Under the pieces are notes generated by a model that had not been told where the DNA came from, did not search any database, and saw nothing but the letters and a program-made list of their open reading frames with translations. The translations under genes were made by a program, and so were the position numbers. DNA of 33,119 nucleotides, taken from Escherichia phage ET-SD-TH. The stretch lies in the sequence record OR992646, one strand, 5' to 3'. This document shows positions 1 to 25,988 of this stretch, piece by piece. The first letter of the stretch is position 1. The number at the start of each line of letters is the position of its first letter.

Positions 1-164
1 TCACCGGCCAGGTACGCATCGCGGAATTCTTCAACGTGCGCCTGGTCCACGTCACGGATGTTGTAGCCATCTTCCACATACAGTTCAGCCAGAGGCACCC
101 AAAACACCTTGCGCGGCTTTGCTTCGGTGGCACCTGCTTTATAGAGTTGTCCAATAGTAGCCAT
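1..164 (-). CDS. ParB-like nuclease domain protein, N-terminal fragment (gene runs off the window start)
   Basis: ATG at 164..162; translation MATIGQLYKAGATEAKPRKVFWVPLAELYVEDGYNIRDVDQAHVEEFRDAYLAG has the VP..EL....N.R spacing typical of the ParB N-terminal (ParBc) domain. Only 54 codons visible. Confidence 0.35.
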   Translation of the reverse strand, partial: MATIGQLYKAGATEAKPRKVFWVPLAELYVEDGYNIRDVDQAHVEEFRDAYLAG

Positions 165-239
165 TTACATAAATCCCAACACAAATGAAGTGATTAAAAA
201 TGAAGCCCATACAATAATGATGGGCAGATCACGTTTTTT

Positions 240-252
240 AACAATCATTGTT
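240..252. repeat. 13-bp palindrome AACAATCATTGTT (copy 1 of 3), overlapping the stop codon of the 236-aa gene and preceded by TTTTTT
   Basis: Exact sequence read at 240-252; reverse complement of the copies at 2465-2477 and 5581-5593. Confidence 0.45.
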
Positions 253-955
253 TACGATAACCTTTGCCAGAAATCCAAATTGCAATTTCTGTGGCAACAC
301 CAATGTCAAGACTGGTTTTTGTAGTGGCAGCAAAGTTAGCCAGTTCGTAAAGTATTTCATCACGCGCTTCACATTCATTTAGGTCGGCTTCTAACTGCTC
401 ATCGTTCAATATCGCAGTATCGCGAGGCACAACAATTCCTGCTGGTTGTACTTCGTGAGGATTAACAATGCGGTAAGAAATGATGTCACCGTCACTGCCA
501 GTATGTGACCATGCAAAATATTCTGCTCTGTCATTATTGATATGAAGCGGGCTAGGATTCCGGTATTTGACTTCAACAATTGCGTCACTATCCACAGGAC
601 ATTCACCGCCAGCCCATTCAATCCAGCCGTCAGCGTCGGCAGCAATTGCGGTTTTTCCTGCCCCTGTGTCAGCCGTGTAGTGTTCAGTTGAAACCTGGTA
701 CGGTCGCAGTTCTTTACTGGCTGCCAGCGCGGCTTCGTACTGGTCGCTGGTGATNNNNNNNNNNNNNNNNNNNNNNNNNNNNNNNNNNNNNNNNNNNNNN
801 NNNNNNNNNNNNNNNNNNNNNNNNNNNNNNNNNNNNNNNNNNNNNAGTTCACGGTCTGAATCTTGCGTAATAGCCTTCACTCCTTCCGGCCATCCGCCAC
901 GTTTCGGCAGTTCTTCAACCAGTATTTGCAGCAGGGTTTTATTTGATGTGTTCAT
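245..955 (-). CDS. hypothetical acidic protein (236 aa; 91 nt masked internally)
   Basis: Long minus-strand ORF immediately downstream of the tail D gene; protein-like composition; no motif I can recognise. Residues from 755-845 are unknown. Confidence 0.45.
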   Translation of the reverse strand: MNTSNKTLLQILVEELPKRGGWPEGVKAITQDSDREXXXXXXXXXXXXXXXXXXXXXXXXXXXXXXXITSDQYEAALAASKELRPYQVSTEHYTADTGAGKTAIAADADGWIEWAGGECPVDSDAIVEVKYRNPSPLHINNDRAEYFAWSHTGSDGDIISYRIVNPHEVQPAGIVVPRDTAILNDEQLEADLNECEARDEILYELANFAATTKTSLDIGVATEIAIWISGKGYRKQ

Positions 956-1049
956 GTGGGCATTACCTCGTTATTTATCCGGGCAGGTTATCCGCCCGTT
1001 CAAGGTAATGATATACGATGATGTAGAATGATTGCAACAATGTTTGTTG

Positions 1050-2204
1050 TTATTTTTCTTCGATGACATGGCCAGGGCCATCATCGCCTTCGTTAATGTC
1101 CTTTTCTTCGATCACGTGCCCTGGACCATCATCGTCAGGAGGGTCGCTTTCTTGCGGCTTCCTGCGCTCGATGATTTGCACCTTTGGTTCTTCTTCGCTG
1201 TTCGGCTTCGTTGCTTCCACGTCGCACGAATAACCGTTGTCATCCAGCCTGTGATCTGCGCGGGTAATCAGCCATTCGCCATCAATGCCATCACGGAACT
1301 CAACCAGCACCAGCTTGCATTCTGCGGCAATGGTAGGGTCACCGGGCAGCGTCACGGCAACAGTCACCTGGTTGCGCTGACGCTTCGACAGTTCGGCTTT
1401 GGCGGCGTCCAGCGCCATTGCCTGCGTTGGGTAGTATTTGCCAATCCGTTTGACCGGCTCCCCTTCGCCCACCTTCACTTCGTTGCGCGCTGCCTTCTTC
1501 GTCACCTGGTAGTAAGCCACCACCGTGCCTGCGTTTTCGCGCTTCTGGCTGGTTAGCCGGAATGCGGTGCAATCCTGCGCCGTCAGCGTTATGGTTGGCA
1601 GTTCTTCGCCGCTGGCCGTCTTACCTTCGCCGCGCTTCGTGACCGTGATTTTGCCGCCTGATGGTTTCACTACGCCGTCATATTTCTTGGCCAGTCGCAG
1701 CAACAGGTTCAGGTCAGATTCATCGGCCTGGTCAGTGTGGGGCAGGGTGATTTTGGCCATGCTTTCTGACACGGCTGATTCCATGCCGTGTTCTTCGGCA
1801 ATCTTCTTCACCATGTCGCCAAACTTCGTGCCTTTGGTCCAGCTACGTGATTTTTGCGTTTGCAGGTCGGTTTTGCCGCCCTTTGACTTGTCATAGGTGG
1901 CAGCTCTCGCCCTGATTGTCATGGTGCCTGGCCAGCCAGCCAGTTCCACTTCATCACAGATGAACAAGCCCATGCGCTGTGTCCAGTTATCATAACCCAG
2001 GAACAGTTCCAGTTCTGCGCCTGTTTCCGGCATCTGGATTGGGTTGGCCGGTTCATCATCGGCAAGGCTTATTTCCAGCGTGTCAGATTCCAGCCCTACG
2101 CCGTCAGACAGACTAAGGCTTATCAGGCGTTCATTGATTTTGGCGGTGATGTCATCGCCGTTGGCCAGCACGCGAAACGCTGGCGCAATCCCTGTTAATC
2201 CCAC
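1050..2204 (-). CDS. phage tail protein D (P2 gpD-like, late control D family)
   Basis: 384-aa ORF; N-terminus MGLTGIAPAFRVLANGDDITAKINERLISLSLSD matches the gpD family; sits after U and X as in P2-type tail modules; C-terminus carries a tandem DDGPGHVIEEK repeat. Confidence 0.85.
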   Translation of the reverse strand: MGLTGIAPAFRVLANGDDITAKINERLISLSLSDGVGLESDTLEISLADDEPANPIQMPETGAELELFLGYDNWTQRMGLFICDEVELAGWPGTMTIRARAATYDKSKGGKTDLQTQKSRSWTKGTKFGDMVKKIAEEHGMESAVSESMAKITLPHTDQADESDLNLLLRLAKKYDGVVKPSGGKITVTKRGEGKTASGEELPTITLTAQDCTAFRLTSQKRENAGTVVAYYQVTKKAARNEVKVGEGEPVKRIGKYYPTQAMALDAAKAELSKRQRNQVTVAVTLPGDPTIAAECKLVLVEFRDGIDGEWLITRADHRLDDNGYSCDVEATKPNSEEEPKVQIIERRKPQESDPPDDDGPGHVIEEKDINEGDDGPGHVIEEK

Positions 2205-2404
2205 AATTTCACCCCCTGCGTGGTCGCTGGCGTCGTGATTTCAGGCAGGTTGATGACCAGGCCAGCAGGCAGCACAGGTCCACGGTCTGCCAACCCTTTG
2301 TTGGCGTCCAGCAGTGCTTCCACGGTGCCAGCGTCCTGGTTTCCGTAGTATTTCCAGGCGATGTAATCCGCCGTGTCACCGTCTTTGGTAATGTAAGTTT
2401 GCAT
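2195..2404 (-). CDS. phage tail protein X (P2 gpX-like)
   Basis: 69-aa ORF MQTYITKDGDTADYIAWKYYGNQDAGTVEALLDANKGLADRGPVLPAG resembles P2 gpX; start overlaps the U stop, end overlaps the D start. Confidence 0.8.
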   Translation of the reverse strand: MQTYITKDGDTADYIAWKYYGNQDAGTVEALLDANKGLADRGPVLPAGLVINLPEITTPATTQGVKLWD

Positions 2405-2814
2405 CAGTTGAACCGCCGCAGTTGCAAATTGAATTCCTGTTTGCGCGGCGCACCGAACGCGGCAAACAATGATTGTTTTTCGTCAATGGCTTCAATCACC
2501 CAGCGGCCCCACAGCTTGCCCAGGCCGTCCACCAGCAACAGCGGCTGACCACGGCCAGCCATGCTGCGCATTTGCTCCACCTGCTGAAACCCGCCACGGT
2601 ATTCAGGGTAAATGATGCCAGCCAGGGTGATGGTTTCCTCTCCGATGCCCACGAATTGCGATGATGGTCGCTGGCCAAAGCGGTGCTGCGATGGCCACTT
2701 ATATTCGCTGTGGCGGTTCAGTTCCTGATATGCCGCAGTAAGGATGCAGAACTGGAAGCCGCCCAACATCATCATGATGTTGGTCTGCCCGGTTAAAATC
2801 GTGAAACTGGTCAT
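2404..2814 (-). CDS. phage tail protein U (P2 gpU-like)
   Basis: Contains MMMLGGFQF...SEYKWPSQHRFGQRPSSQFVG...LLLVDGLGKLWGRWVI...PRKQEFNLQLRRF, matching gpU; ATGA start/stop overlap with the tape measure gene (ATG 2814-2812, TGA 2813-2811) with GGAG upstream. An alternative start at the MMM run (2775) is possible. Confidence 0.8.
   Translation of the reverse strand: MTSFTILTGQTNIMMMLGGFQFCILTAAYQELNRHSEYKWPSQHRFGQRPSSQFVGIGEETITLAGIIYPEYRGGFQQVEQMRSMAGRGQPLLLVDGLGKLWGRWVIEAIDEKQSLFAAFGAPRKQEFNLQLRRFN
2465..2477. repeat. 13-bp palindrome AACAATGATTGTT (copy 2 of 3), inside the U coding region
   Basis: Exact sequence read at 2465-2477. Confidence 0.4.
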
Positions 2815-5150
2815 GGTGCCGTCACTCCGTCATTCATCATGCTGCGCTGCCGCACCTGGCGGCGGCGCTCCTGTTCGTCGGCAATACGTTTGGCCAGGTC
2901 TGTGGTGTTCTCACCAGGGCGCTGCACGATCTGCATCGTAGTTTGGCTGTTGTCCTGGTAGGTACTGCCTCCACGGTTAGCCAGTGCCGGTGCTGGCAAT
3001 GCGCTTGCTGGTGTCTGCGGTGTCGCCAGAGTGTTTCCTTCCGGCACGTCATCACCGCCGAACGGGTTTCTGAAAAAGTCTTTTGTTGACTCCCACGCGC
3101 TGCCAGCCATGTCAGAAACGCTGTTTTTGAAATCAATTGCTTTTTGCGTCAGTGCGCCAATGTTGTCAGAAACCCAAATGATCTTATCAATCAGGAACTG
3201 AATTGGCCCCAACACAAAATCAATGCCTGCGGCAAGCGCCTTGCCGAACTTCTGGCCAGCGTCACCGGCCTTTTTCAGTTCTTCGCTGCTGTAGCTCACC
3301 GGTTCTGCCAGTTTTGTGAACCAATCCCACACCTTACCAGCAACGTCAGCAACCCACTGGAACGCGGTTTTGACTGGTCCTAACTTATCCCACAGCGCCT
3401 GGAATTTCTCCGTTACTGGCTGCAACCCTTGCTGGATTCCCTGCAAAGTGCCGGTCATGAACGCTTTGACGCCAGCCCAATTGCGGTAAATCCACAGGCC
3501 GCCAAGCGCCAGTCCGGTAATCAGGGCACCAATGCCGGTGGAAATGAACGCCGCACCGATGGCGCGCACACCAGCGACAACGGCAGGGATTCCACGCGAT
3601 GCCATGCCCACTAGTCCGCCGTTGGCCACGGTAGCTGCGGCACCCACTGCACGCGAGGAAACCGCCGTCAGCGCCATCTGTGCGCGGGCACCAGCCAGGG
3701 CACCTACAACACGAAGCGCACCACCACGCAGGTACGTGAACGCGAAGCCAGCAGCAAACGTGGCAATGCGCATGGTAATCAGTGCGCCAGCCGTGGCTAC
3801 AATGGCTTTGGTGACAACCGGGTGCGCTTGCGCCAGTTCTGTAACCTTGCCAATCCACGGACTAATGGTTTTCAGGACGCTGTTGAATGCTGGAAGCAGC
3901 ACGCTGCCAATAGTGATACCAAGTGCGGTGATCTGGTTTCGGAATATTACCAGTTCGTTTGCCGTTGTTGCGGCCCGTGCCTGGTATTCTTTTTCCATAG
4001 AACCGGCATATTTCATTTTGTTCGCTACAGCGTCAAAATTCTTTTCCAGTTCCTTGATGTTCGTCAGCAATGGCGCAATTGAACCAACAACCTCTTTGCC
4101 AAAAAGCTGCGTCAGAACCGCTGACTGTTCGTGTTTCCGCAGTTTTGCAACCTGCTTGAGAATGACAAGCATGGTTTTTTTGGAGTCCCGTTGCATGGAT
4201 TTTGCAACTGCTGTTGAGGAATAGCCAAGCCGTGCGAATGCTTCTCGCTGCGATTTTGCTTTACCCGCCGTCAGTGACAGCATCAGGTTTTTGATACCAG
4301 TGGCGGCAATCTCGTTTTGCACACCCATGCCGCGCAGTGTCGCACCAAGTGCGGCAATTTCACCGGAAGCAGTACCGGCAACCTCGCCAAGTGGCCCGAT
4401 GCGCTGCACGATCTCCATGATGTCTTTGGCTGATGCGGCAGTGTTATTGCCCAGGTAGTTGATTTTGTCAGCCAGGGCGACAACCTGTTGCTGGTTCATC
4501 TTGAACGCAGAGCGCATCTCTGCCATCGCCTGGCCTGCCTGGTCGGCGGTGATGTCGAACGCCACGCCCATTTTGATGGCTGATTCCGCAAACGTCATCA
4601 GATCTTTGGCTGCAATGCCAGACTGACCACCAGCGGCAACGATCTTGCCAATGTCGTTGGCAGTCATCGGCAGAACTTTTGACATGTTGATAATGTCCTG
4701 CCCCATCTTTTTGAACCCGTCAGGCGTGTCGAAATCAACAACCTTTTTCACGTCAGCCATCGTTGATTCAAAATCAATCGCTGCTTTGACGGGTGCGGCA
4801 ATAGTGGCACCCAGGGCGATGGTGCCCATTATGCCGCTTTTGTATTCTTCGCGCTTATCAAGATTTCGCTGGCGTGCATCCTCCACACGTTTCAGGCGTT
4901 CGGTGGCGGTGCGAAGTTTGTCCACCGCAGCGACGTTTGCGGCATATTTGGCGCGCAGTGAATCAACGTTTTTGCCCTGGCGGCCAAACGTCTGTATGGC
5001 GTTGGTTAGCGTGCGTTGCTCGCGTTCCAGTTTGGCCATTGCCGAGCCAACCTGTTCCACAGATGATTTGACGGTGCCAAATGCGCCTTTAAGGCTGCTT
5101 GAAACTGCCCCGCCTATCGTGATCGTTGCATTGAGCTTCTTATTTGCCAT
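2811..5150 (-). CDS. phage tail tape measure protein (P2 gpT-like)
   Basis: 779-aa ORF rich in Ala/Gly with long helical segments and hydrophobic glycine-rich central stretches; positioned directly after the E/E' chaperone pair; ATG at 5150-5148. Confidence 0.85.
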   Translation of the reverse strand: MANKKLNATITIGGAVSSSLKGAFGTVKSSVEQVGSAMAKLEREQRTLTNAIQTFGRQGKNVDSLRAKYAANVAAVDKLRTATERLKRVEDARQRNLDKREEYKSGIMGTIALGATIAAPVKAAIDFESTMADVKKVVDFDTPDGFKKMGQDIINMSKVLPMTANDIGKIVAAGGQSGIAAKDLMTFAESAIKMGVAFDITADQAGQAMAEMRSAFKMNQQQVVALADKINYLGNNTAASAKDIMEIVQRIGPLGEVAGTASGEIAALGATLRGMGVQNEIAATGIKNLMLSLTAGKAKSQREAFARLGYSSTAVAKSMQRDSKKTMLVILKQVAKLRKHEQSAVLTQLFGKEVVGSIAPLLTNIKELEKNFDAVANKMKYAGSMEKEYQARAATTANELVIFRNQITALGITIGSVLLPAFNSVLKTISPWIGKVTELAQAHPVVTKAIVATAGALITMRIATFAAGFAFTYLRGGALRVVGALAGARAQMALTAVSSRAVGAAATVANGGLVGMASRGIPAVVAGVRAIGAAFISTGIGALITGLALGGLWIYRNWAGVKAFMTGTLQGIQQGLQPVTEKFQALWDKLGPVKTAFQWVADVAGKVWDWFTKLAEPVSYSSEELKKAGDAGQKFGKALAAGIDFVLGPIQFLIDKIIWVSDNIGALTQKAIDFKNSVSDMAGSAWESTKDFFRNPFGGDDVPEGNTLATPQTPASALPAPALANRGGSTYQDNSQTTMQIVQRPGENTTDLAKRIADEQERRRQVRQRSMMNDGVTAP

Positions 5151-5156
5151 TTATTT

Positions 5157-5566
5157 TTAAGCCTTCGGCAATCCTTCCAACCACCACACAAAGCGGGAAA
5201 CCCGCAACCTTTGAATTTCCGATAACTGCCAGCCCGTATGACTTGCGAGCGCCAAAGCGCCCGCGCGTATGTATTCCGGGCTTAATCTAAAAAACTGATG
5301 TAGGCAGCCTGTAGGCGCTTATAGTCTTTCAGAGGCAGGCGGCGGATGTCATCAGGTGCCTGTTCACACAGGTTGGCAAACGTCTGGATTTCGCGCGCAG
5401 CATCGCTGCCGCCCATGTCGCTTGCAATTTCCTGGTCAGCCACGGTTGGTTCACGCATACGCAGCACGGAAACGTCAACGCCTGCGATTTTCAGTGGTCG
5501 TGACAGGGTGATGTCACAGTGGCCGGTTTCGTTGTTGAATTTCAGGTAATCAGGTAATTTCGCCAT
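5157..5566 (-). CDS. tail assembly chaperone E+E' (predicted -1 frameshift product)
   Basis: After the slippery heptamer TTTTTTA (5294..5288) the -1 frame stays open for 43 codons (RLSPEYIRAGALALASHTGWQLSEIQRLRVSRFVWWLEGLPKA) and stops at TAA 5159..5157, 6 nt before the tape measure ATG. It fills the otherwise non-coding 5151-5281 gap exactly as in P2 E/E' and lambda G/GT. Confidence 0.5.
5282..5566 (-). CDS. tail assembly chaperone E (P2 gpE-like)
   Basis: 94-aa ORF MAKLPDYLKFNNETGHCDITLSRPLKIAGVDVSVLRMREPTVADQE..., matching the gpE family; located between tube and tape measure genes. Confidence 0.75.
   Translation of the reverse strand: MAKLPDYLKFNNETGHCDITLSRPLKIAGVDVSVLRMREPTVADQEIASDMGGSDAAREIQTFANLCEQAPDDIRRLPLKDYKRLQAAYISFLD
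5288..5294 (-). other. putative -1 programmed ribosomal frameshift slippery site TTTTTTA (X_XXY_YYZ) at the end of gene E
   Basis: Minus-strand sequence ATC AGT TTT TTA GAT TAA; heptamer T_TTT_TTA lies 1 codon before the E stop. Confidence 0.5.
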
Positions 5567-5580
5567 TTCTTATCGCCTTA

Positions 5581-5593
5581 AACAATGATTGTT
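5581..5593. repeat. 13-bp palindrome AACAATGATTGTT (copy 3 of 3), 15-28 nt upstream of the E start
   Basis: Exact sequence read at 5581-5593. Confidence 0.45.
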
Positions 5594-5599
5594 GAAAAT

Positions 5600-5619
5600 G
5601 GCCAGCCAAATGACTGGCC
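5600..5619 (-). terminator. terminator-like hairpin between tube and E genes (possible attenuator)
   Basis: GGCCAG-N8-CTGGCC stem (5600-5605 / 5614-5619) directly after the tube stop; followed on the minus strand by AUUUUCAACAAUCAUUGUUU. Confidence 0.3.
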
Positions 5620-5626
5620 GTAAAAA

Positions 5627-6133
5627 TTACATCGCCAGCGCGGAACGGATGGCGGCCAGGGTGTCTACACCGTTGATGATGCGCACCATGTTTTCCACGT
5701 CGATTTCGTGGATGGTCTTTCCGTTATGCTGCTGCTTGAAATAGTTCAGGCTGACAGTCACGTTAAGGGAACTTAATTCCCCAGGCGTCCAGGTGCCTGG
5801 CTCCATGCTGGTGATTTTGCCGCGCATGTTCATGACAACGCCTTTCACGCTGCCATCATAGGATTCCAGCGCACCGCGAAACGTCAGCGGAACGCTTGCG
5901 CCTTCTGACAGGCCAAACAGCGCCAACACGTCAGAATCATAGGCACGCAGCGCAAAACTTGCCTCCAGCTTTTCCATGCCCAACGTCACATCAATGGGCG
6001 CGTCCATGCCGCCTGCGCGGAATTCTTCGGTTTGCAGGGTTAAGGTGGGCGGCGTGACGCTCTCCACCTGGCCCGCGTAACCACGGCCATCAACAAATAA
6101 GTTGATGTTTTTCAAAACGTCACGTGCGGCCAT
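5627..6133 (-). CDS. phage tail tube protein (P2 FII-like)
   Basis: 168-aa [46 protein letters not shown]..., matching the contractile-tail tube family; its ATG (6133-6131) overlaps the sheath stop by 1 nt (TAATG). Confidence 0.85.
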   Translation of the reverse strand: MAARDVLKNINLFVDGRGYAGQVESVTPPTLTLQTEEFRAGGMDAPIDVTLGMEKLEASFALRAYDSDVLALFGLSEGASVPLTFRGALESYDGSVKGVVMNMRGKITSMEPGTWTPGELSSLNVTVSLNYFKQQHNGKTIHEIDVENMVRIINGVDTLAAIRSALAM

Positions 6134-7557
6134 TATTCGAATACCTCACTAATATAATCGTTGGTCAACTGGCTGCGGAAGATAATGTGTTCAGCCGGAT
6201 AAACAGGCGTGAAATCAAAATCAAAGTATACCTTACCGTCAGCGATCTGGTCAGCAGTATTTAAGTCAGGGTCAGCCCAACACGTGCCGCCAAGAATTGC
6301 GCCAAGGCTCACCAGGTTGCGCAGGTACGCGTTCACGCCTTCAATCACGTCATTGACGTATTGTTTGGTGATGCCACGGTCTACGGCCCACAGGTGTGCA
6401 CGCAGCAGGCTGTCATTGATGATGTCAGCCGTGCGAACAACGCACAGGAACGCCCATTTCGGATCGCTGGAAGTGGTGCGGTTGCCCCACAGGCGGAAAC
6501 CATCCTGGCGAATGATGGTGGTGACTTCGTTTTCGTTCAGCAGGTTTGCACGGCTGGACGTATCACCCAGGGTGAAATCAATGGTTCTGGCCGTGCCCTG
6601 AATGCCATAGATTTCCTGGTTTGATGGTGACCACCAGAAACCGCGCTCGTTGTCGATGCGGGCAATCAGGCCAGCCACGCGCGGCGATGCCCAATCAGTA
6701 ATCGTGGTGCCATCTTCGTCAAGCACCAGCACTTTTGGGTCAACCACATAAACGCGCTTGCTGCCAAAGTCTTTGCGGTAGGCGATGGCGTCAGCGTCGT
6801 TGGTGTTAGGGCCGTCAGCGATGATGACAGCACGCAGGCGGTTGGCGATGCCAAGCAGTTCAGAAACCACGGCATTGGCTGCAACGCCAACGGATGCGGT
6901 TGCAGTTGCGCCGGTGCCGTTTCCGCCAGTGATGGCTACGGTTGGCGCGCTGGTGTAACCCATGCCGGAATTGGTGACGGTGATTTTGGTGATGACTCCA
7001 CCAACCACAGTGGCTTCCGCAGTTGCGCCAGAACCGCCGCCACCAGTCAGTGTGACTGTCGGTGCCGTGGTGTAGCCGCTGCCGCCATTGCCAATGGTGA
7101 TAGCTGTGACGCCATCCTGAACGCGGGTATGCGTGAATCCAGGCACGCACAGAATGCGAGGCGAGTAGCCAACAACGGATTCAGCGCCAAGCAGTGCGTG
7201 AACGCCTTCATATTTGCCGGTTGATGCGTTAACACCTCCCATGATGTTGGCCAGTGTTGCTGCTTCTTCTTCTCCTTCTTCAACGCGCACAACGATAACT
7301 ACCGCGCCGATCTGGTCCAGGATGGCATCCAGTGCTTTTGGCAGTGTGCCTTCACCGGTTCCAAGTAGGTCCAGTTTAGCCGCTTCTCGCTGGCTGCCAG
7401 CAATCAGGGTAGGGGTGTTAATCGGGAATGCGTCAGGGTCGGCATTCGGCGCTGTGCCTACAATGCCAATGACGCTGGATTTAACGGTTTGAATGACGCG
7501 TGAACCGGAATCAATTTCCAGCACCTCCACGCCATGTAAGAACTCAGTACCTGCCAT
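6133..7557 (-). CDS. phage tail sheath protein (P2 FI-like) with internal repeat-containing insertion
   Basis: 474 aa from ATG 7557-7555 to TAA 6135-6133; N-terminus [54 protein letters not shown] and C-terminal ...[26 protein letters not shown]... follow the FI sheath pattern. The supplied ORF continues into the N run only as an artefact. Confidence 0.9.
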
Positions 7558-7574
7558 TATTCGGTTTCCTATTG

Positions 7575-7588
7575 ACTGTGCACACAGT
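7575..7588. promoter_or_regulatory. inverted repeat ACTGTG-CA-CACAGT in the sheath 5' leader; candidate late-promoter operator
   Basis: Read directly at 7575-7588, 18-31 nt upstream of the sheath ATG; further CACTG copies at 7598-7602 and 7616-7620 (minus-strand orientation). Confidence 0.3.
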
Positions 7589-7649
7589 GAAAATTCGCAG
7601 TGTGATGGTCGCAGGAACAGTGCGTGGCTTCTTCTTGGGGTTTGTCCGT

Positions 7650-7673
7650 AAAAAAAGCCCGCGTGATGCGGGC
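7650..7673 (-). terminator. intrinsic terminator upstream of the sheath gene
   Basis: Minus-strand RNA GCCCGC-AUCA-(C)GCGGGC followed by UUUUUUU (plus-strand A run 7650-7656, stem 7657-7673). Confidence 0.6.
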
Positions 7674-10600
7674 AAAGGCGACAAATCAGTAACNNNNNNN
7701 NNNNNNNNNNNNNNNNNNNNNNNNNNNNNNNNNNNNNNNNNNNNNNNNNNNNNNNNNNNNNNNNNNNNNNNNNNNNNNNNNNNNNNNNNNNNNNNNNNNN
7801 NNNNNNNNNNNNNNNNNNNNNNNNNNNNNNNNNNNNNNNNNNNNNNNNNNNNNNNNNNNNNNNNNNNNNNNNNNNNNNNNNNNNNNNNNNNNNNNNNNNN
7901 NNNNNNNNNNNNNNNNNNNNNNNNNNNNNNNNNNNNNNNNNNNNNNNNNNNNNNNNNNNNNNNNNNNNNNNNNNNNNNNNNNNNNNNNNNNNNNNNNNNN
8001 NNNNNNNNNNNNNNNNNNNNNNNNNNNNNNNNNNNNNNNNNNNNNNNNNNNNNNNNNNNNNNNNNNNNNNNNNNNNNNNNNNNNNNNNNNNNNNNNNNNN
8101 NNNNNNNNNNNNNNNNNNNNNNNNNNNNNNNNNNNNNNNNNNNNNNNNNNNNNNNNNNNNNNNNNNNNNNNNNNNNNNNNNNNNNNNNNNNNNNNNNNNN
8201 NNNNNNNNNNNNNNNNNNNNNNNNNNNNNNNNNNNNNNNNNNNNNNNNNNNNNNNNNNNNNNNNNNNNNNNNNNNNNNNNNNNNNNNNNNNNNNNNNNNN
8301 NNNNNNNNNNNNNNNNNNNNNNNNNNNNNNNNNNNNNNNNNNNNNNNNNNNNNNNNNNNNNNNNNNNNNNNNNNNNNNNNNNNNNNNNNNNNNNNNNNNN
8401 NNNNNNNNNNNNNNNNNNNNNNNNNNNNNNNNNNNNNNNNNNNNNNNNNNNNNNNNNNNNNNNNNNNNNNNNNNNNNNNNNNNNNNNNNNNNNNNNNNNN
8501 NNNNNNNNNNNNNNNNNNNNNNNNNNNNNNNNNNNNNNNNNNNNNNNNNNNNNNNNNNNNNNNNNNNNNNNNNNNNNNNNNNNNNNNNNNNNNNNNNNNN
8601 NNNNNNNNNNNNNNNNNNNNNNNNNNNNNNNNNNNNNNNNNNNNNNNNNNNNNNNNNNNNNNNNNNNNNNNNNNNNNNNNNNNNNNNNNNNNNNNNNNNN
8701 NNNNNNNNNNNNNNNNNNNNNNNNNNNNNNNNNNNNNNNNNNNNNNNNNNNNNNNNNNNNNNNNNNNNNNNNNNNNNNNNNNNNNNNNNNNNNNNNNNNN
8801 NNNNNNNNNNNNNNNNNNNNNNNNNNNNNNNNNNNNNNNNNNNNNNNNNNNNNNNNNNNNNNNNNNNNNNNNNNNNNNNNNNNNNNNNNNNNNNNNNNNN
8901 NNNNNNNNNNNNNNNNNNNNNNNNNNNNNNNNNNNNNNNNNNNNNNNNNNNNNNNNNNNNNNNNNNNNNNNNNNNNNNNNNNNNNNNNNNNNNNNNNNNN
9001 NNNNNNNNNNNNNNNNNNNNNNNNNNNNNNNNNNNNNNNNNNNNNNNNNNNNNNNNNNNNNNNNNNNNNNNNNNNNNNNNNNNNNNNNNNNNNNNNNNNN
9101 NNNNNNNNNNNNNNNNNNNNNNNNNNNNNNNNNNNNNNNNNNNNNNNNNNNNNNNNNNNNNNNNNNNNNNNNNNNNNNNNNNNNNNNNNNNNNNNNNNNN
9201 NNNNNNNNNNNNNNNNNNNNNNNNNNNNNNNNNNNNNNNNNNNNNNNNNNNNNNNNNNNNNNNNNNNNNNNNNNNNNNNNNNNNNNNNNNNNNNNNNNNN
9301 NNNNNNNNNNNNNNNNNNNNNNNNNNNNNNNNNNNNNNNNNNNNNNNNNNNNNNNNNNNNNNNNNNNNNNNNNNNNNNNNNNNNNNNNNNNNNNNNNNNN
9401 NNNNNNNNNNNNNNNNNNNNNNNNNNNNNNNNNNNNNNNNNNNNNNNNNNNNNNNNNNNNNNNNNNNNNNNNNNNNNNNNNNNNNNNNNNNNNNNNNNNN
9501 NNNNNNNNNNNNNNNNNNNNNNNNNNNNNNNNNNNNNNNNNNNNNNNNNNNNNNNNNNNNNNNNNNNNNNNNNNNNNNNNNNNNNNNNNNNNNNNNNNNN
9601 NNNNNNNNNNNNNNNNNNNNNNNNNNNNNNNNNNNNNNNNNNNNNNNNNNNNNNNNNNNNNNNNNNNNNNNNNNNNNNNNNNNNNNNNNNNNNNNNNNNN
9701 NNNNNNNNNNNNNNNNNNNNNNNNNNNNNNNNNNNNNNNNNNNNNNNNNNNNNNNNNNNNNNNNNNNNNNNNNNNNNNNNNNNNNNNNNNNNNNNNNNNN
9801 NNNNNNNNNNNNNNNNNNNNNNNNNNNNNNNNNNNNNNNNNNNNNNNNNNNNNNNNNNNNNNNNNNNNNNNNNNNNNNNNNNNNNNNNNNNNNNNNNNNN
9901 NNNNNNNNNNNNNNNNNNNNNNNNNNNNNNNNNNNNNNNNNNNNNNNNNNNNNNNNNNNNNNNNNNNNNNNNNNNNNNNNNNNNNNNNNNNNNNNNNNNN
10001 NNNNNNNNNNNNNNNNNNNNNNNNNNNNNNNNNNNNNNNNNNNNNNNNNNNNNNNNNNNNNNNNNNNNNNNNNNNNNNNNNNNNNNNNNNNNNNNNNNNN
10101 NNNNNNNNNNNNNNNNNNNNNNNNNNNNNNNNNNNNNNNNNNNNNNNNNNNNNNNNNNNNNNNNNNNNNNNNNNNNNNNNNNNNNNNNNNNNNNNNNNNN
10201 NNNNNNNNNNNNNNNNNNNNNNNNNNNNNNNNNNNNNNNNNNNNNNNNNNNNNNNNNNNNNNNNNNNNNNNNNNNNNNNNNNNNNNNNNNNNNNNNNNNN
10301 NNNNNNNNNNNNNNNNNNNNNNNNNNNNNNNNNNNNNNNNNNNNNNNNNNNNNNNNNNNNNNNNNNNNNNNNNNNNNNNNNNNNNNNNNNNNNNNNNNNN
10401 NNNNNNNNNNNNNNNNNNNNNNNNNNNNNNNNNNNNNNNNNNNNNNNNNNNNNNNNNNNNNNNNNNNNNNNNNNNNNNNNNNNNNNNNNNNNNNNNNNNN
10501 NNNNNNNNNNNNNNNNNNNNNNNNNNNNNNNNNNNNNNNNNNNNNNNNNNNNNNNNNNNNNNNNNNNNNNNNNNNNNNNNNNNNNNNNNNNNNNNNNNNN

Positions 10601-12750
10601 NNNNNNNNNNNNNNNNNNNNNNNNNNNNNNNNNNNNNNNNNNNNNNNNNNNNNNNNNNNNNNNNNNNNNNNNNNNNNNNNNNNNNNNNNNNNNNNNNNNN
10701 NNNNNNNNNNNNNNNNNNNNNNNNNNNNNNNNNNNNNNNNNNNNNNNNNNNNNNNNNNNNNNNNNNNNNNNNNNNNNNNNNNNNNNNNNNNNNNNNNNNN
10801 NNNNNNNNNNNNNNNNNNNNNNNNNNNNNNNNNNNNNNNNNNNNNNNNNNNNNNNNNNNNNNNNNNNNNNNNNNNNNNNNNNNNNNNNNNNNNNNNNNNN
10901 NNNNNNNNNNNNNNNNNNNNNNNNNNNNNNNNNNNNNNNNNNNNNNNNNNNNNNNNNNNNNNNNNNNNNNNNNNNNNNNNNNNNNNNNNNNNNNNNNNNN
11001 NNNNNNNNNNNNNNNNNNNNNNNNNNNNNNNNNNNNNNNNNNNNNNNNNNNNNNNNNNNNNNNNNNNNNNNNNNNNNNNNNNNNNNNNNNNNNNNNNNNN
11101 NNNNNNNNNNNNNNNNNNNNNNNNNNNNNNNNNNNNNNNNNNNNNNNNNNNNNNNNNNNNNNNNNNNNNNNNNNNNNNNNNNNNNNNNNNNNNNNNNNNN
11201 NNNNNNNNNNNNNNNNNNNNNNNNNNNNNNNNNNNNNNNNNNNNNNNNNNNNNNNNNNNNNNNNNNNNNNNNNNNNNNNNNNNNNNNNNNNNNNNNNNNN
11301 NNNNNNNNNNNNNNNNNNNNNNNNNNNNNNNNNNNNNNNNNNNNNNNNNNNNNNNNNNNNNNNNNNNNNNNNNNNNNNNNNNNNNNNNNNNNNNNNNNNN
11401 NNNNNNNNNNNNNNNNNNNNNNNNNNNNNNNNNNNNNNNNNNNNNNNNNNNNNNNNNNNNNNNNNNNNNNNNNNNNNNNNNNNNNNNNNNNNNNNNNNNN
11501 NNNNNNNNNNNNNNNNNNNNNNNNNNNNNNNNNNNNNNNNNNNNNNNNNNNNNNNNNNNNNNNNNNNNNNNNNNNNNNNNNNNNNNNNNNNNNNNNNNNN
11601 NNNNNNNNNNNNNNNNNNNNNNNNNNNNNNNNNNNNNNNNNNNNNNNNNNNNNNNNNNNNNNNNNNNNNNNNNNNNNNNNNNNNNNNNNNNNNNNNNNNN
11701 NNNNNNNNNNNNNNNNNNNNNNNNNNNNNNNNNNNNNNNNNNNNNNNNNNNNNNNNNNNNNNNNNNNNNNNNNNNNNNNNNNNNNNNNNNNNNNNNNNNN
11801 NNNNNNNNNNNNNNNNNNNNNNNNNNNNNNNNNNNNNNNNNNNNNNNNNNNNNNNNNNNNNNNNNNNNNNNNNNNNNNNNNNNNNNNNNNNNNNNNNNNN
11901 NNNNNNNNNNNNNNNNNNNNNNNNNNNNNNNNNNNNNNNNNNNNNNNNNNNNNNNNNNNNNNNNNNNNNNNNNNNNNNNNNNNNNNNNNNNNNNNNNNNN
12001 NNNNNNNNNNNNNNNNNNNNNNNNNNNNNNNNNNNNNNNNNNNNNNNNNNNNNNNNNNNNNNNNNNNNNNNNNNNNNNNNNNNNNNNNNNNNNNNNNNNN
12101 NNNNNNNNNNNNNNNNNNNNNNNNNNNNNNNNNNNNNNNNNNNNNNNNNNNNNNNNNNNNNNNNNNNNNNNNNNNNNNNNNNNNNNNNNNNNNNNNNNNN
12201 NNNNNNNNNNNNNNNNNNNNNNNNNNNNNNNNNNNNNNNNNNNNNNNNNNNNNNNNNNNNNNNNNNNNNNNNNNNNNNNNNNNNNNNNNNNNNNNNNNNN
12301 NNNNNNNNNNNNNNNNNNNNNNNNNNNNNNNNNNNNNNNNNNNNNNNNNNNNNNNNNNNNNNNNNNNNNNNNNNNNNNNNNNNNNNNNNNNNNNNNNNNN
12401 NNNNNNNNNNNNNNNNNNNNNNNNNNNNNNNNNNNNNNNNNNNNNNNNNNNNNNNNNNNNNNNNNNNNNNNNNNNNNNNNNNNNNNNNNNNNNNNNNNNN
12501 NNNNNNNNNNNNNNNNNNNNNNNNNNNNNNNNNNNNNNNNNNNNNNNNNNNNNNNNNNNNNNNNNNNNNNNNNNNNNNNNNNNNNNNNNNNNNNNNNNNN
12601 NNNNNNNNNNNNNNNNNNNNNNNNNNNNNNNNNNNNNNNNNNNNNNNNNNNNNNNNNNNNNNNNNNNNNNNNNNNNNNNNNNNNNNNNNNNNNNNNNNNN
12701 NNNNNNNNNNNNNNNNNNNNNNNNNNNNNNNNNNNNNNNNNNNNNNNNNN

Positions 12751-20871: not shown

Positions 20872-22920
20872 TCACCAGCGGCTAACCCATCCACCGCCAC
20901 GGCGTTTTGCTGCCCTGGCGGAACGTTTAATGGTCTTAGTCTCTTTGACTTGCTGTTTTTCTTCTTCTTGGGGTTTGTCATTGACCGCTGATGGTGGCTC
21001 CACCGGCTTCATGACAGGTTTTACGTTCGGCAGTCGCTTGCGTCGTTCCGGTGGCGCGTTGTCGTTCGCTACGCCAAACTTTTCAGCCAGACGGCGGAAT
21101 GACGGCTGCATGATTTTAAGCGCGGCCAGCGCATAGTTGCGGCAGTCCAGTGCTTCGTTACGCGCCCGGTCGGGTTTCTTCCATTCGCGGATTGGCTGGC
21201 CCTTCACGTAACGCATGGTTAGCTTTTCAGCGGTGATTTGCTTGAACCATTCTTCATCACGGTCAGCAGGGAAGTGGCAATAACCCGGCCCAGGTGCCGT
21301 CTTGTTTAAACGCCTTGCGGTTATCAGCTTGGCTTCATCGGTTCCCACCAGGAACAAATCCACTTTGCGGGCATCCTTCCCGGATTGCTTGCGCTTCGGC
21401 TTCTCCACGACAGGGCGGCCCCATCCGCCAACGCCTTTGATGGCAAACAGGCGGCGGCCTGTGCGCCCCCTGGCGTATTCGTAGGATGCCTGCGTGTAAC
21501 CGCTGGTGCCCCCTGTATCGAGGCAGGCGGCCATGATCGGCATAATGGCCCCGGTTTCGTGCTGGTAGGTTTCCGCCAGAAGGTCATCCAGTGCATCCCA
21601 GGGGTCAGGCGTCAGTGGGTCACCCCACAGGACGTGGTAACCCAATGACCAGGATTCTTCACCCACACCCCAGGCGACCACCTCACATTCCAGGCGGTCA
21701 ACCTGCATGTCTATGCCTGCGGTGATATACAGCCCACCAGCAGGAACCGGCGCTGCGTATTCCTCGCGGCGGGCCATCAGTGAATCCGGGTCAACCTTGT
21801 CGCCTTCTTCTTCCCAGGTGCGCGCCAGGCTGACGTTGGTGAAGGTTTGCAGGTCGTCGGTTTTCAGCTTGTCCAGGTAGTCACGCACGATGGCCGGAAC
21901 TTTGCGGAACGTGCTGTAAAGTTCGTTCAGATGGTAGCTGGCGTGCCCTTCAAACGGCCTGGATGCCTTCCATCCTGCGCCCTTTCCTTCGGCCTGGCGG
22001 ATAGCCGCTATCCGTTCGCCGTCATTCCACTGCGCGCCGCACGATGGGCAATACAGGTGCGCGGTTTCCGGCTTCTGTTCTTCGATGGCCGCCAGCGTTT
22101 CCGCGTCAGTTTCCCGTTGGCCATCCCATTTGACGTTTTCCCATTCAAGCGTAACGTGATCGTCACAGTGCGGGCAGCAAACAAAGAAGTGCCGCTGGTC
22201 GCCCATTTCATACGCTTTTTCGATGTACGATTCCCCTTTAAGGGTAGGTGTGCTAATTTCCAGCAAAAAACGCTGGTCACCGAAGGTGGCAGAGCGCTGC
22301 CACAGCAGGCCAACAGGGTGGCCTTCGCTGGTTCGTTCATATCCGTCTACCTCGTCACAGACAATCAGCGGCGCTGAACGCCCGCGCATGGTCTTTGGCG
22401 AACCGGACCAGGCGAACATCAGGAACCCGCCAGGGTATGATTTCATTTTCTGGTTGTTCACCCCGTCGCGGCCACGCGGCTTGGCAATGGCGTTGTTTAC
22501 CGGCGCGCATTCTTCCGCCAGCGGGTTGAATTTCGTTTCCAGCCAGGTGCGCAAGTCATCCTGGCTTGGCTGCATCATCATCTGGCTGCGCGGTTCCGCT
22601 GCTACGCTGTACGCCTGCACGCACAGTGCCAGCATGGTTTTGCCCACCTGCGCGCCCCACATCAGGGTCACGCGGTAACAATCAGGGTCAACCAGCATGT
22701 CCATTGGTTCGCGCTGGTATGGCGCGTTATCCAGGCGCAGCGGCCCTGGCACGGCGTTGCCAGACGGAATGCGGATGTTTGCCTGCGCCCACTCTGACGG
22801 CTTCATGTCTGGCGGCGGCAACAATTGTTGTTGTGCGCGCCTGATGGCCTGGTCGATGCCTTCAATGTTGGCAAACGGGTTATTCTTCGCTGTCACCGTC
22901 GCCCCCTTCGTCATAGCCAT
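20872..22920 (-). CDS. terminase large subunit (lambda gpA-like)
   Basis: 682-aa ORF; Walker A-like GAQVGKT; overall similarity to lambda gpA (...FFVCCPHCDDHVTLEWENVKWDGQ...); paired with an Nu1-like small subunit upstream. Confidence 0.9.
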   Translation of the reverse strand: MAMTKGATVTAKNNPFANIEGIDQAIRRAQQQLLPPPDMKPSEWAQANIRIPSGNAVPGPLRLDNAPYQREPMDMLVDPDCYRVTLMWGAQVGKTMLALCVQAYSVAAEPRSQMMMQPSQDDLRTWLETKFNPLAEECAPVNNAIAKPRGRDGVNNQKMKSYPGGFLMFAWSGSPKTMRGRSAPLIVCDEVDGYERTSEGHPVGLLWQRSATFGDQRFLLEISTPTLKGESYIEKAYEMGDQRHFFVCCPHCDDHVTLEWENVKWDGQRETDAETLAAIEEQKPETAHLYCPSCGAQWNDGERIAAIRQAEGKGAGWKASRPFEGHASYHLNELYSTFRKVPAIVRDYLDKLKTDDLQTFTNVSLARTWEEEGDKVDPDSLMARREEYAAPVPAGGLYITAGIDMQVDRLECEVVAWGVGEESWSLGYHVLWGDPLTPDPWDALDDLLAETYQHETGAIMPIMAACLDTGGTSGYTQASYEYARGRTGRRLFAIKGVGGWGRPVVEKPKRKQSGKDARKVDLFLVGTDEAKLITARRLNKTAPGPGYCHFPADRDEEWFKQITAEKLTMRYVKGQPIREWKKPDRARNEALDCRNYALAALKIMQPSFRRLAEKFGVANDNAPPERRKRLPNVKPVMKPVEPPSAVNDKPQEEEKQQVKETKTIKRSARAAKRRGGGWVSRW

Positions 22921-25154: not shown

Positions 25155-25589
25155 TTATTGCCCCGTAGTCATTAGTAGTCGGTGCTGATGGTTGTCATTT
25201 GCAGGTGATGTGTCTTTGTGGGGTTTGTCAGTGCAATGGCGCTTTACTGTGCGTTCTGATATGTCCAGCAGTTCCGCAATGGCTTTTGCGTCCATTCCTT
25301 CGCTGTGCATCCGCTTAATGCTGCGGTGAATGAAATGGCGGTAAATGTATTCACAATTAGCCGGGTGAAGCATTTCACCACCGAAGTGCTGCACCATCTT
25401 GCTGGCATCGTGCCACCCCAGGATTTTCACCAGTGGGTCATTGGGTCTAATCCGCTTTGGTACATACAGGATGACTTTGTGGTACTGCTGCGATGGCACC
25501 CACAGTTTTGGCAGTTGACCTATAAGAAAAAGCGCACGTTCACGGCCAATAACGTCAGCTATTTCCTGCACAGTGCGCGGTAATTCCAT
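25155..25589 (-). CDS. Mor-family late transcriptional activator
   Basis: ATG 25589-25587 preceded by GGGGGG; C-terminal GGEMLHPANCEYIYRHFIHRSIKRMHSEGMDAKAIAELLDISERTVKRHC matches the spacing of the Mu Mor GG...HTH region; positioned immediately upstream of the lysis/packaging genes. Confidence 0.55.
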   Translation of the reverse strand: MELPRTVQEIADVIGRERALFLIGQLPKLWVPSQQYHKVILYVPKRIRPNDPLVKILGWHDASKMVQHFGGEMLHPANCEYIYRHFIHRSIKRMHSEGMDAKAIAELLDISERTVKRHCTDKPHKDTSPANDNHQHRLLMTTGQ

Positions 25590-25660
25590 GTAACCCCCCA
25601 ATAATTATAAATAAAAGTCAATATGGGGATTGTAGCACACAGAATATACGAAAGTAACAA

Positions 25661-25928
25661 GGGACTAGCTTGGGACTATCTCGGGAAAAGATAGTCCCAC
25701 TATTATATTATTGATTAACTTGAAGAAAACGCCATTTTCTTGCTAGTTTGGGACAAGTGGGACCAAATTTCCCTATATATACTATTACTCCCCCTATATT
25801 TATAAATAATGTTTTATAAAAAGATAGTCCCTTATAGTCCCAAATGGTGTTTTCGTTATTAATATCAGTAACTTAAAGTGGGACCAGCTCAAAAAAAGAT
25901 AGTCCCATTTGGGACCATAGATAGTCCC
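25661..25928. repeat. array of 11 GGGAC-core repeats (consensus GATAGTCCCA / TGGGACTATC) in AT-rich DNA; candidate replication origin iterons or operator array
   Basis: GGGAC at 25661, 25672, 25750, 25759, 25880, 25911; GTCCC at 25694, 25827, 25837, 25902, 25924; several form inverted pairs; AT-rich tract with CCCTATAT twice (25771-25800) lies in the middle. Confidence 0.6.
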
Positions 25929-25988
25929 AAATCGCATTTGTATGACAATTACTTACCAGAAAAAGTGGTTAATATTGCTAAATCGACC

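Follow-up and report, generated by a model that had tools for sequence, protein, structure and literature searches.

A probable terminator-promoter junction with a predicted activator-dependent late promoter ahead of the tail sheath gene of Escherichia phage ET-SD-TH

In Escherichia phage ET-SD-TH (sequence record OR992646; the whole stretch of 33,119 nucleotides analysed here is called the window), the tail sheath gene heads a sheath-tube-chaperone-tape measure-U-X-D operon, and the 128-nt gap upstream of its ATG (7558-7685) contains an intrinsic terminator. A first-pass annotation of the gap had listed the terminator, three CACTG copies and an inverted repeat, all of which are present at the coordinates it gave, and had placed an activator-dependent late promoter there. 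Such a promoter is indeed very probable, but its working parts would be a box at 7646-7628 and a hexamer at 7610-7605 rather than the motifs that had been flagged. Our overall reading, which we regard as probable, is that the gap is a terminator-promoter junction carrying an activator-dependent late promoter that lacks a -35 element, has the layout of the C-dependent promoters of phage Mu and is one of about five of its kind in the genome.

Positions 1-7693 of the window are 95.5% identical to Escherichia phage vB_EcoM_ECO1230-10 (hereafter ECO1230-10; NC_027995.1), a myophage of the genus Jilinvirus (Iiscvirinae), and 90-93% identical to phages ep3, ECOO78, Alux-21 and HeidiAbel/Bas97. A search of complete E. 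coli genomes with this region of the window gave no match. Six stretches of the window (13 kb) are N-masked, one of them (7694-12750) directly upstream of the sheath gap, and the content behind the masks was read from the complete ECO1230-10 genome (L003), onto which window positions map with an offset of 2841. Nearly all genes of the window are encoded on the minus strand, as are the features of the sheath gap (Table 1).

When the sheath gap was aligned from 13 phages of seven host genera, two conserved blocks appeared, both of them outside the features flagged by the first-pass annotation. The first follows the T-run of the terminator directly; its sequence is GGACAAACCCCAAGAAGAAGC in the E. 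coli phages, whereas phages of Pseudomonas, Achromobacter and Ralstonia have GGAAATCCCACAAGAGGAAC. The 19-nt box GACAAACCCCAAGAAGAAG begins here, 3 nt past the T-run; its consensus, G-A-M-A-A-N-C-C-N-C-A-A-G-A-R-G-A-A-C, is asymmetric, and positions G1, A4, C7, C8, A11, A14 and G16 are invariant among the aligned sites. The second block, 17 nt beyond the box, reads GCGACCAT or GGGACAAT and is where the hexamer GACCAT lies in the window. The second (A) and sixth (T) bases of this hexamer, positions 38 and 42 in box numbering, are invariant in all 22 sites aligned from five complete genomes (ECO1230-10, Arya, PPpW-3, Mano and MQ-4), and position 40 is an A in 17 of the 22, so that the hexamer takes the form nAnAAT or nAnAcT. 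Judged by sequence and position, A38 and T42 are the two most important bases of a predicted sigma-70 -10 element, held at a fixed distance from the box. The trinucleotide TGC directly precedes GACCAT, and the TG at 7613-7612 fits an extended -10 element. At the -35 position the sequence reads AAGAAG, with nothing resembling TTGACA, and a scan of 5000-7693 for sigma-70 consensus promoters found none in the sheath gap. An alternative -10, GAATTT (box positions 51-56), which would go with a P2-like box near -55, was rejected: it is not found in the other promoter classes, and it is impossible at the copy ahead of the baseplate gene W, where an ATG occupies positions 49-53.

The box is not confined to the sheath gap. 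Two exact copies are present in the window against 0.00 expected, and ECO1230-10 has four copies at up to two mismatches against 0.01 expected, together with a fifth copy that has four mismatches. All copies are on the late-gene strand, and a search of the opposite strand that allowed four mismatches returned none. The second exact copy in the window lies within the 3′ end of the large terminase gene (terL), 72 nt ahead of the next gene, and a degenerate third copy lies within the 3′ end of the gene for a predicted late transcriptional activator, 38 nt ahead of the holin gene. In the five complete genomes, the combination of box, 17-nt spacer and hexamer is syntenic at four to five late-gene positions: inside the activator gene at its 3′ end, upstream of the holin gene; inside terL, again at the 3′ end, upstream of the head gene that follows; within a protease/scaffold-capsid fusion gene, about 100 nt ahead of an internal Shine-Dalgarno sequence and ATG; in the gap between the baseplate genes V and W; and in the sheath gap. 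In Arya, four of the five copies were recovered at up to 4-5 mismatches. The distance from box to start codon varies from 50 to about 115 nt among the copies. The copy inside the fusion gene is masked in the window (at about 18240) and was seen in ECO1230-10 (L003 21081-21040), where the gene encodes 682 amino acids and an internal GAGGA and ATG follow downstream. By analogy with C/Nu3 of phage lambda, this suggests that a nested product could be transcribed separately.

Table 1. Positions of the sheath-gap features and of related features elsewhere in the window or its relatives
Feature	Position	Strand	Basis or remark
Stop codon TGA of upstream small tail-fibre-region gene (gp14-like in ECO1230-10)	7686-7688	-	Remainder of gene N-masked
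Intrinsic terminator: stem GCCCGC/GCGGGC, loop ATCAC, T7 at 7656-7650	7650-7673	-	Terminator scan
Late-promoter box GACAAACCCCAAGAAGAAG, 19 nt; predicted activator site, about -48 to -30	7628-7646	-	Repetition and synteny
Spacer, 17 nt, unconserved	7611-7627	-	Near-zero information per position; holds first CACTG and the TG at 7613-7612
-10-like hexamer GACCAT	7605-7610	-	Invariant A/T positions across sites
Predicted transcription start, about 7598 (G), 7 nt past the -10	7596-7600	-	Position of the -10 and W copies
Leader dyad ACTGTG-TG-CACAGT, core TGTGTGCACA, about +11 to +24 of the predicted transcript	7575-7588	-	Sequence; 17 nt before sheath ATG
Shine-Dalgarno sequence AGGAA of the sheath gene	7566-7570	-	Sequence
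Tail sheath gene, 474 amino acids	6133-7557	-	Pfam PF04984 (Phage_sheath_1) and PF17482 (C-terminal domain); relatives' annotation
Second visible promoter copy: box 20979-20961, hexamer GAGACT 20943-20938	20938-20979	-	Exact box match
Degenerate third copy: box GACAAACCCCACAAAGACA 25229-25211, hexamer AACCAT 25193-25188	25188-25229	-	Box search
Predicted late transcriptional activator, 144 amino acids, C-terminal helix-turn-helix	25155-25589	-	phrog_836 'late transcriptional activator', E 3.6e-31; generic helix-turn-helix Pfam hits
V|W gap of ECO1230-10	L003 16730-16782 (masked in window); likewise L014 ~9535, L015 ~9704, L016 ~9568, L018 ~9597		

The same architecture extends beyond the complete genomes. 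With a model of box, spacer and hexamer, 30 of 59 non-redundant IMG/VR loci with a related sheath gene exceed the 99th percentile of shuffled sequences, and 29 of these 30 score best with a spacer of exactly 17 nt and with the site 35-48 nt upstream of the ATG; the lowest-scoring of the 30 is probably a false hit. A more distant sheath clade has no box; in its place, CTAGAAT or CTAGACT is found about 25 nt upstream of the ATG. In that clade (within L058-L098, IMG/VR) the terminator is also absent, and the CTAGAAT or CTAGACT is located at the stop codon of the upstream gene; it may represent a different type of promoter.

The copy in the V|W gap is informative about where transcription would begin. 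In all five genomes, a conserved W start codon (M-x-G-T/I-N/D-A) is located 7-8 nt past the last T of the hexamer, and it has no Shine-Dalgarno sequence, whereas other genes here have strong ones. As the ATG of W stands where transcription should start and lacks a Shine-Dalgarno sequence, a leaderless W mRNA is implied. The position of this codon supports our assignment of the start site, and by the same distance rule from the -10 the sheath transcript would start near 7598, where the second CACTG (7602-7598) overlaps the predicted start. In PPpW-3 and Mano, the start of W has probably been annotated too far upstream. We also observed two possible structures in RNA that reads through from upstream. 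In the V|W gap, a hairpin ATGCGGGC-ATCATT-GCCCGCAT encloses the -10 and the ATG and would mask the start codon in read-through RNA. In the sheath gap, the UUCCUG of the spacer (7615-7620) can pair with the Shine-Dalgarno region UAGGAA (7566-7571); the z-score of this fold is only -1.75, and the pairing is impossible in a transcript starting near 7598. The corresponding TTCCT is conserved among the phages of E. coli and Serratia, whereas Arya and KA2-1 lack it.

The terminator itself, which the first-pass annotation had called strong, is real: it exceeds chance and is conserved with compensatory changes in its stem. The hairpin (7673-7657) has six GC pairs and a folding energy of -11.6 kcal/mol. 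In 24 of 31 box-bearing loci, a GC-rich hairpin and T-run lie 0-18 nt (mostly 0-7 nt) upstream of the box, and the stems of relatives differ in a compensatory manner (GCCGCC/GGCGGC, GCCGCCC/GGGCGGC, GCCACCC/GGGTGGC, GGCCGC/GCGGCC and others). The element thus has the GC-rich hairpin and directly following U-run of a Rho-independent terminator, and it is the structure, not the sequence, that is kept. Seven box-bearing loci have no clear terminator signal, so terminator and box are separable.

Which protein might read the box? Each genome has its own box variant, common to all its copies. Among the variants are GACAAACCCCAAGAAGAAG, GACACCCCGCACGAAGAAG, GCAAACCCACAAGAGGAAC and GAAAATCCGCAAGAGGAAC, with rarer ones that contain CCGGAGGA, CCAGAGGA or ACGTGGAA or begin with AAGAACCC. 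For 12 genomes, the box of the sheath gap was compared with the one in the activator gene, about 17 kb away: the two show 0.75 differences in 16 positions within a genome and 3.80 between genomes, and none of 20,000 permutations matched boxes within genomes as well. Since the box changes in parallel throughout a genome while region 4 of the host sigma-70 is conserved across these hosts, the reader is likely to be phage-encoded. Among the 80 loci listed, all 11 long contigs that carry the box encode homologues of the 144-residue late activator and none of the seven contigs without the box does, and in the window the activator gene directly precedes the lysis genes. From these correlations, the box is most probably read by the 144-residue activator. 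The first-pass annotation had suggested that a Mor-like protein might serve the promoter; the late activator is the most plausible candidate, but the label 'Mor-like' is weak at the level of both sequence and fold.

Further observations concern the activator gene. The nearly invariant motif PQE....ANDN at the C-terminus of the family belongs to a tail of low model confidence and coincides with the embedded box and -10; its conservation probably reflects a DNA-level constraint from the embedded lysis promoter. In one clade from IMG/VR (L159-L167 and L172-L177), the match to the activator covers residues 2-79 only and is followed by ...PANCSGNKGGRPKKNP..., with no recognisable helix-turn-helix, and the box variant AAAAACCCCGACGTGGAA with a -10 of CAGAAT is still embedded. 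The sheath loci of two contigs of this clade that are common to both searches share the ACGTGGAA variant. The DNA-binding part of the activator may have been split off or replaced in this clade. Upstream of the activator gene of the window (25655-25940), dense direct and inverted repeats (TGGGACTATCT / AGATAGTCCCA / AAGTGGGACCA) look like operators or iterons, serving the activator gene or an origin.

Several points weigh against the reading of the gap as an activator-dependent promoter of the Mu kind, or against the 144-residue protein as a Mor/C-type reader. The window activator does not match the Pfam Mor family (PF08765) at E≤1. With hhalign, an alignment of its FGGEiLqPanC and helix-turn-helix with the LGGGQVYIPRG and helix-turn-helix of Mor reached E 0.02 and a probability of 2%, and a comparison with C gave nothing useful. 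The evidence for membership of the Mor/C family is weak and mixed. Other conserved small DNA-binding proteins, for example a helix-turn-helix protein of 62 residues, remain candidate readers. The sites of Mor and C are imperfect dyads, and the best dyad that a search from -62 to -23 found here has five of eight pairs and is matched by 72% of shuffles. The invariant positions of the box have a 3-nt periodicity and fall on codon positions 1 and 2 in the three gene-embedded copies (frame D-K-P-Q-E-E), so coding constraint may explain part of the conservation pattern, that is, which positions drift. Furthermore, orthologous promoter sites are phylogenetically non-independent, and a search of the literature on the Jilinvirus/Iiscvirinae group found no transcript or binding data for any member. 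A comparison by eye of the recognition helix with the box variant across loci gave no clean rule, shared ancestry being a confounder.

The layout as a whole most resembles that of Mu. Late promoters of Mu have a -10 and no -35, and their activator site overlaps the -35 region, with a footprint from -30 to -55 (PMC2582627). Both the promoters that depend on C (Plys, PI, PP and Pmom) and the Mor-dependent Pm have a recognisable -10 without a -35 hexamer, as does the architecture described here, and the box, at about -48 to -30 when numbered from the predicted start, overlaps the -35 much as the C footprint does. In both systems several copies head late operons, and the activator gene is located immediately ahead of the lysis genes (C before lys in Mu). 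The candidate activator is likewise small, with a C-terminal helix-turn-helix after an FGG...P linker (PMC2582627; bioRxiv 10.1101/2025.05.02.651988). There are also differences. According to two papers (PMC2582627; PMC4390567), the sites bound by Mor and C are imperfect dyads of 16 bp with their centre at -43.5, and C and Mor bind as tetramers by cryo-EM (bioRxiv 10.1101/2025.05.02.651988), whereas the box is asymmetric and unrelated in sequence. In addition, the activator is at best a very distant relative of Mor and C, and, unlike in Mu, one copy of the promoter lies within the coding sequence of the activator itself.

The first-pass annotation had drawn its analogy with the F operon of P2, and as regards position this holds. 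The tail module is P2-type: in relatives, V, W, J, I and the fibre genes come first and are followed by sheath, tube, E, tape measure, U, X and D, the sheath gene being followed by a P2 FII-type tube gene (a match to Pfam Phage_tube FII) and an E-type chaperone gene. Like the Ogr-activated PF promoter (FI, FII, E, T, U, D), the predicted promoter comes after fibre genes and a terminator and before the operon that runs from sheath and tube through tape measure to D; it, too, lacks a -35 and is predicted to depend on an activator. At the level of the signals the analogy fails. There is no conserved TGT-N12-ACA dyad near -55, and the box overlaps the -35 instead of lying upstream of it. The sole TGT-N11-13-ACA in the gap, TGTTCCTGCGACCATCACA, overlaps the -10 and relies on a T that is a G in the closest relatives. 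Searches with tblastn for Ogr/Delta (PF04606) gave nothing significant in the window (13 kb of it masked) or in the complete genomes of ECO1230-10, Arya, PPpW-3 and Mano. Serratia phage MQ-4 encodes an Ogr/Delta zinc-finger gene (L018 25115-25357; PF04606, 1.8e-19) besides its activator and box promoters. Ogr was rejected as the reader of the box, as MQ-4 is the only one of the five complete genomes to encode it.

Middle promoters of T4 use a MotA box together with appropriation of sigma by AsiA. They share with the architecture described here an asymmetric, phage-specific box in place of the -35, at a fixed distance from a sigma-70 -10. Unlike in T4, no MotA or AsiA homologue was seen, and the box reaches further upstream, to about -48.

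The motifs that had been flagged in the spacer and leader fare differently from the box. The three CACTG copies (7622-7618, 7602-7598 and 7589-7585), taken as promoter elements, are at chance level: 24-61% of shuffled versions of the sheath gap also have a 5-mer that is present three times or more. The first copy lies in the unconserved spacer and is CACGG in all five closest relatives. We therefore rejected the repeats as a signal. A 6-bp inverted repeat by itself occurs in 7-10% of shuffles, so any weight comes from its conservation only. Its core, TGTGTGCACA, is kept in the Escherichia, Enterobacter, Klebsiella and Serratia phages, although the rest of their leader has diverged; the relatives from Pseudomonas, Achromobacter and Ralstonia lack it, as do the other copies of the late promoter. 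At locus L033 the dyad is retained through a double change from T:A to C:G. Being specific to one clade, located within the predicted transcript and found in no other promoter copy, the palindrome is not convincing as a promoter element, and we regard it as a clade-specific leader element, putatively an operator or a minor RNA structure, outside the promoter.

Such an element could tune sheath expression in addition to the box promoter, either as an operator (for example, as a roadblock formed by a repressor) or as a 5′ stem in the RNA. We consider this possible but somewhat doubtful. In its favour, a core of 10-12 nt persists in a diverged leader across four host genera, the element is unique in the genome (TGTGCACA occurs once in the window), and many distant relatives have some dyad between the -10 and the Shine-Dalgarno sequence. 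Against this, the dyad alone is not significant in comparison with shuffles, no candidate binding protein was identified, and the RNA hairpin is weak: leaders fold with -3.4 to -5.5 kcal/mol and z-scores near 0 (palindrome -3.4 kcal/mol, z -0.6), and the consensus that RNAalifold calculated from six leaders has -1.17 kcal/mol and no covariation. The palindrome was thus rejected as an RNA hairpin.

A second alternative keeps the same DNA elements and differs in how the box would be read. Here the box would be a -35-type element recognized by a single helix-turn-helix resembling sigma region 4, in the 144-residue protein or another phage factor, by sigma appropriation or as a mini-sigma. Such a factor would substitute for region 4 of sigma-70 or redirect it, and would not work as a dimer or tetramer of the Mor/C type. 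The asymmetry of the box would fit such a reader, as would its 3′ half standing exactly 17 nt from the -10 in essentially all convincing cases, as in bipartite sigma promoters; the boxes of the Pseudomonas and Achromobacter phages end in GGAAC. The activator family also matches Sigma70_r4_2 (31 of 42 homologues) and GerE (27 of 42) as well as or better than Mor, which is matched weakly by 25 of 42 (best 9.8e-5). Such generic helix-turn-helix matches, however, fit both readings. The protein has no sigma region 2, the -10 resembles a sigma-70 hexamer, the FGGE-L-P-C and helix-turn-helix align with the beta-linker and helix-turn-helix of Mor, and the annotators of phage Mano reported an HHpred match to Mor (1RR7). 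We therefore think this reading unlikely. The same low probability applies to its fuller form, in which the sigma-region-4-like domain would replace region 4 of sigma-70 at the -35 and the structures in read-through RNA (the W hairpin and the UUCCU-Shine-Dalgarno pairing) would silence it, so that only promoter-initiated RNA is translated. Sigma appropriation would then take a minimal form that needs a single protein.

It is less probable still that the gap holds no new promoter. The terminator would then be leaky and the sheath gene expressed by read-through, and the box would be an RNA signal (a processing site, a site for an RNA-binding or antitermination factor, or an enhancer of translation) or a DNA signal of another kind. 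Its sequence is rich in C and A and unstructured, lies within the read-through RNA and is always on the sense strand, and three of the five copies are in coding sequence, all of which such a signal could accommodate. What it leaves unexplained is the invariant A-N3-T exactly 18 nt past the box with a free spacer between them, the W start codon at the expected start without a Shine-Dalgarno sequence, and the variable distances from box to start codon. A strong terminator ahead of the most abundant tail proteins would, moreover, be hard to understand without re-initiation, and a search of Rfam at a permissive threshold returned only sub-threshold, terminator-like tails (rseX, isrK). The proposal of the first-pass annotation that the palindrome or the CACTG repeats form the activator site of a PF-like promoter is the hardest to sustain and very improbable: it can point to the conserved enterobacterial dyad, the compensatory change at L033 and the position between fibre and sheath genes, but the end of the dyad is 17 nt from the ATG and 4 nt from the Shine-Dalgarno sequence, leaving no room for a -10 and start downstream, it is missing from relatives and promoter copies that keep box and -10, and neither the chance-level CACTG triple, a conserved TGT-N12-ACA nor an Ogr homologue in the window or ECO1230-10 comes to its aid.

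The activator-dependent promoter that we prefer would work as follows. Transcripts from the baseplate and fibre genes would stop at the hairpin and T-run. Three bases on, the late promoter would start with the box, followed by the spacer with its TG and a weak sigma-70-type hexamer. As there is no -35 hexamer, the host RNA polymerase should need a phage protein on the box, overlapping the -35, and the 144-residue late activator would bind there. Transcription would then start near 7598, so that the palindrome and AGGAA would lie in a leader of about 41 nt, and such re-initiation would boost production of the sheath and tube, which are abundant proteins. What the sequences show is the arrangement of the motifs, their repetition, strand bias and synteny, the co-variation of the boxes within genomes, and the terminator; that the gap acts as a promoter, where transcription starts and which protein reads the box are inferred. 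Promoters of this type may drive four more late units: the lysis genes, the head genes after terL, the nested scaffold/capsid start, and the baseplate genes from W onward.

Elsewhere in the ECO1230-10 genome, two early-region gaps (L003 30691-30816 and 36632-36735) share a different signal, ATAGGTACAA-CGATT ... TATAGT, of which the unmasked window has no copy. It probably represents a sigma-70 promoter of early or middle type, together with an operator, that is common to both gaps.

A junction of terminator and promoter ahead of the sheath gene is what the biology of P2 and Mu would lead one to expect. For Jilinvirus, Iiscvirinae and related genera, whose hosts include Escherichia, Enterobacter, Klebsiella, Serratia, Pseudomonas, Achromobacter and Ralstonia and for which no transcription study was found in the searchable literature, the analysis offers a concrete map of late transcription, with one candidate activator gene, about five predicted promoters, defined invariant bases and predicted starts. 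Annotation would gain a true start codon for W, a nested scaffold/capsid start, and an explanation of the C-terminal tail of the activator as an embedded promoter. Such a map would be of use in engineering these phages, which are candidates for therapy, and the genome-specific variants of the box would represent natural orthogonal pairs of activator and promoter.

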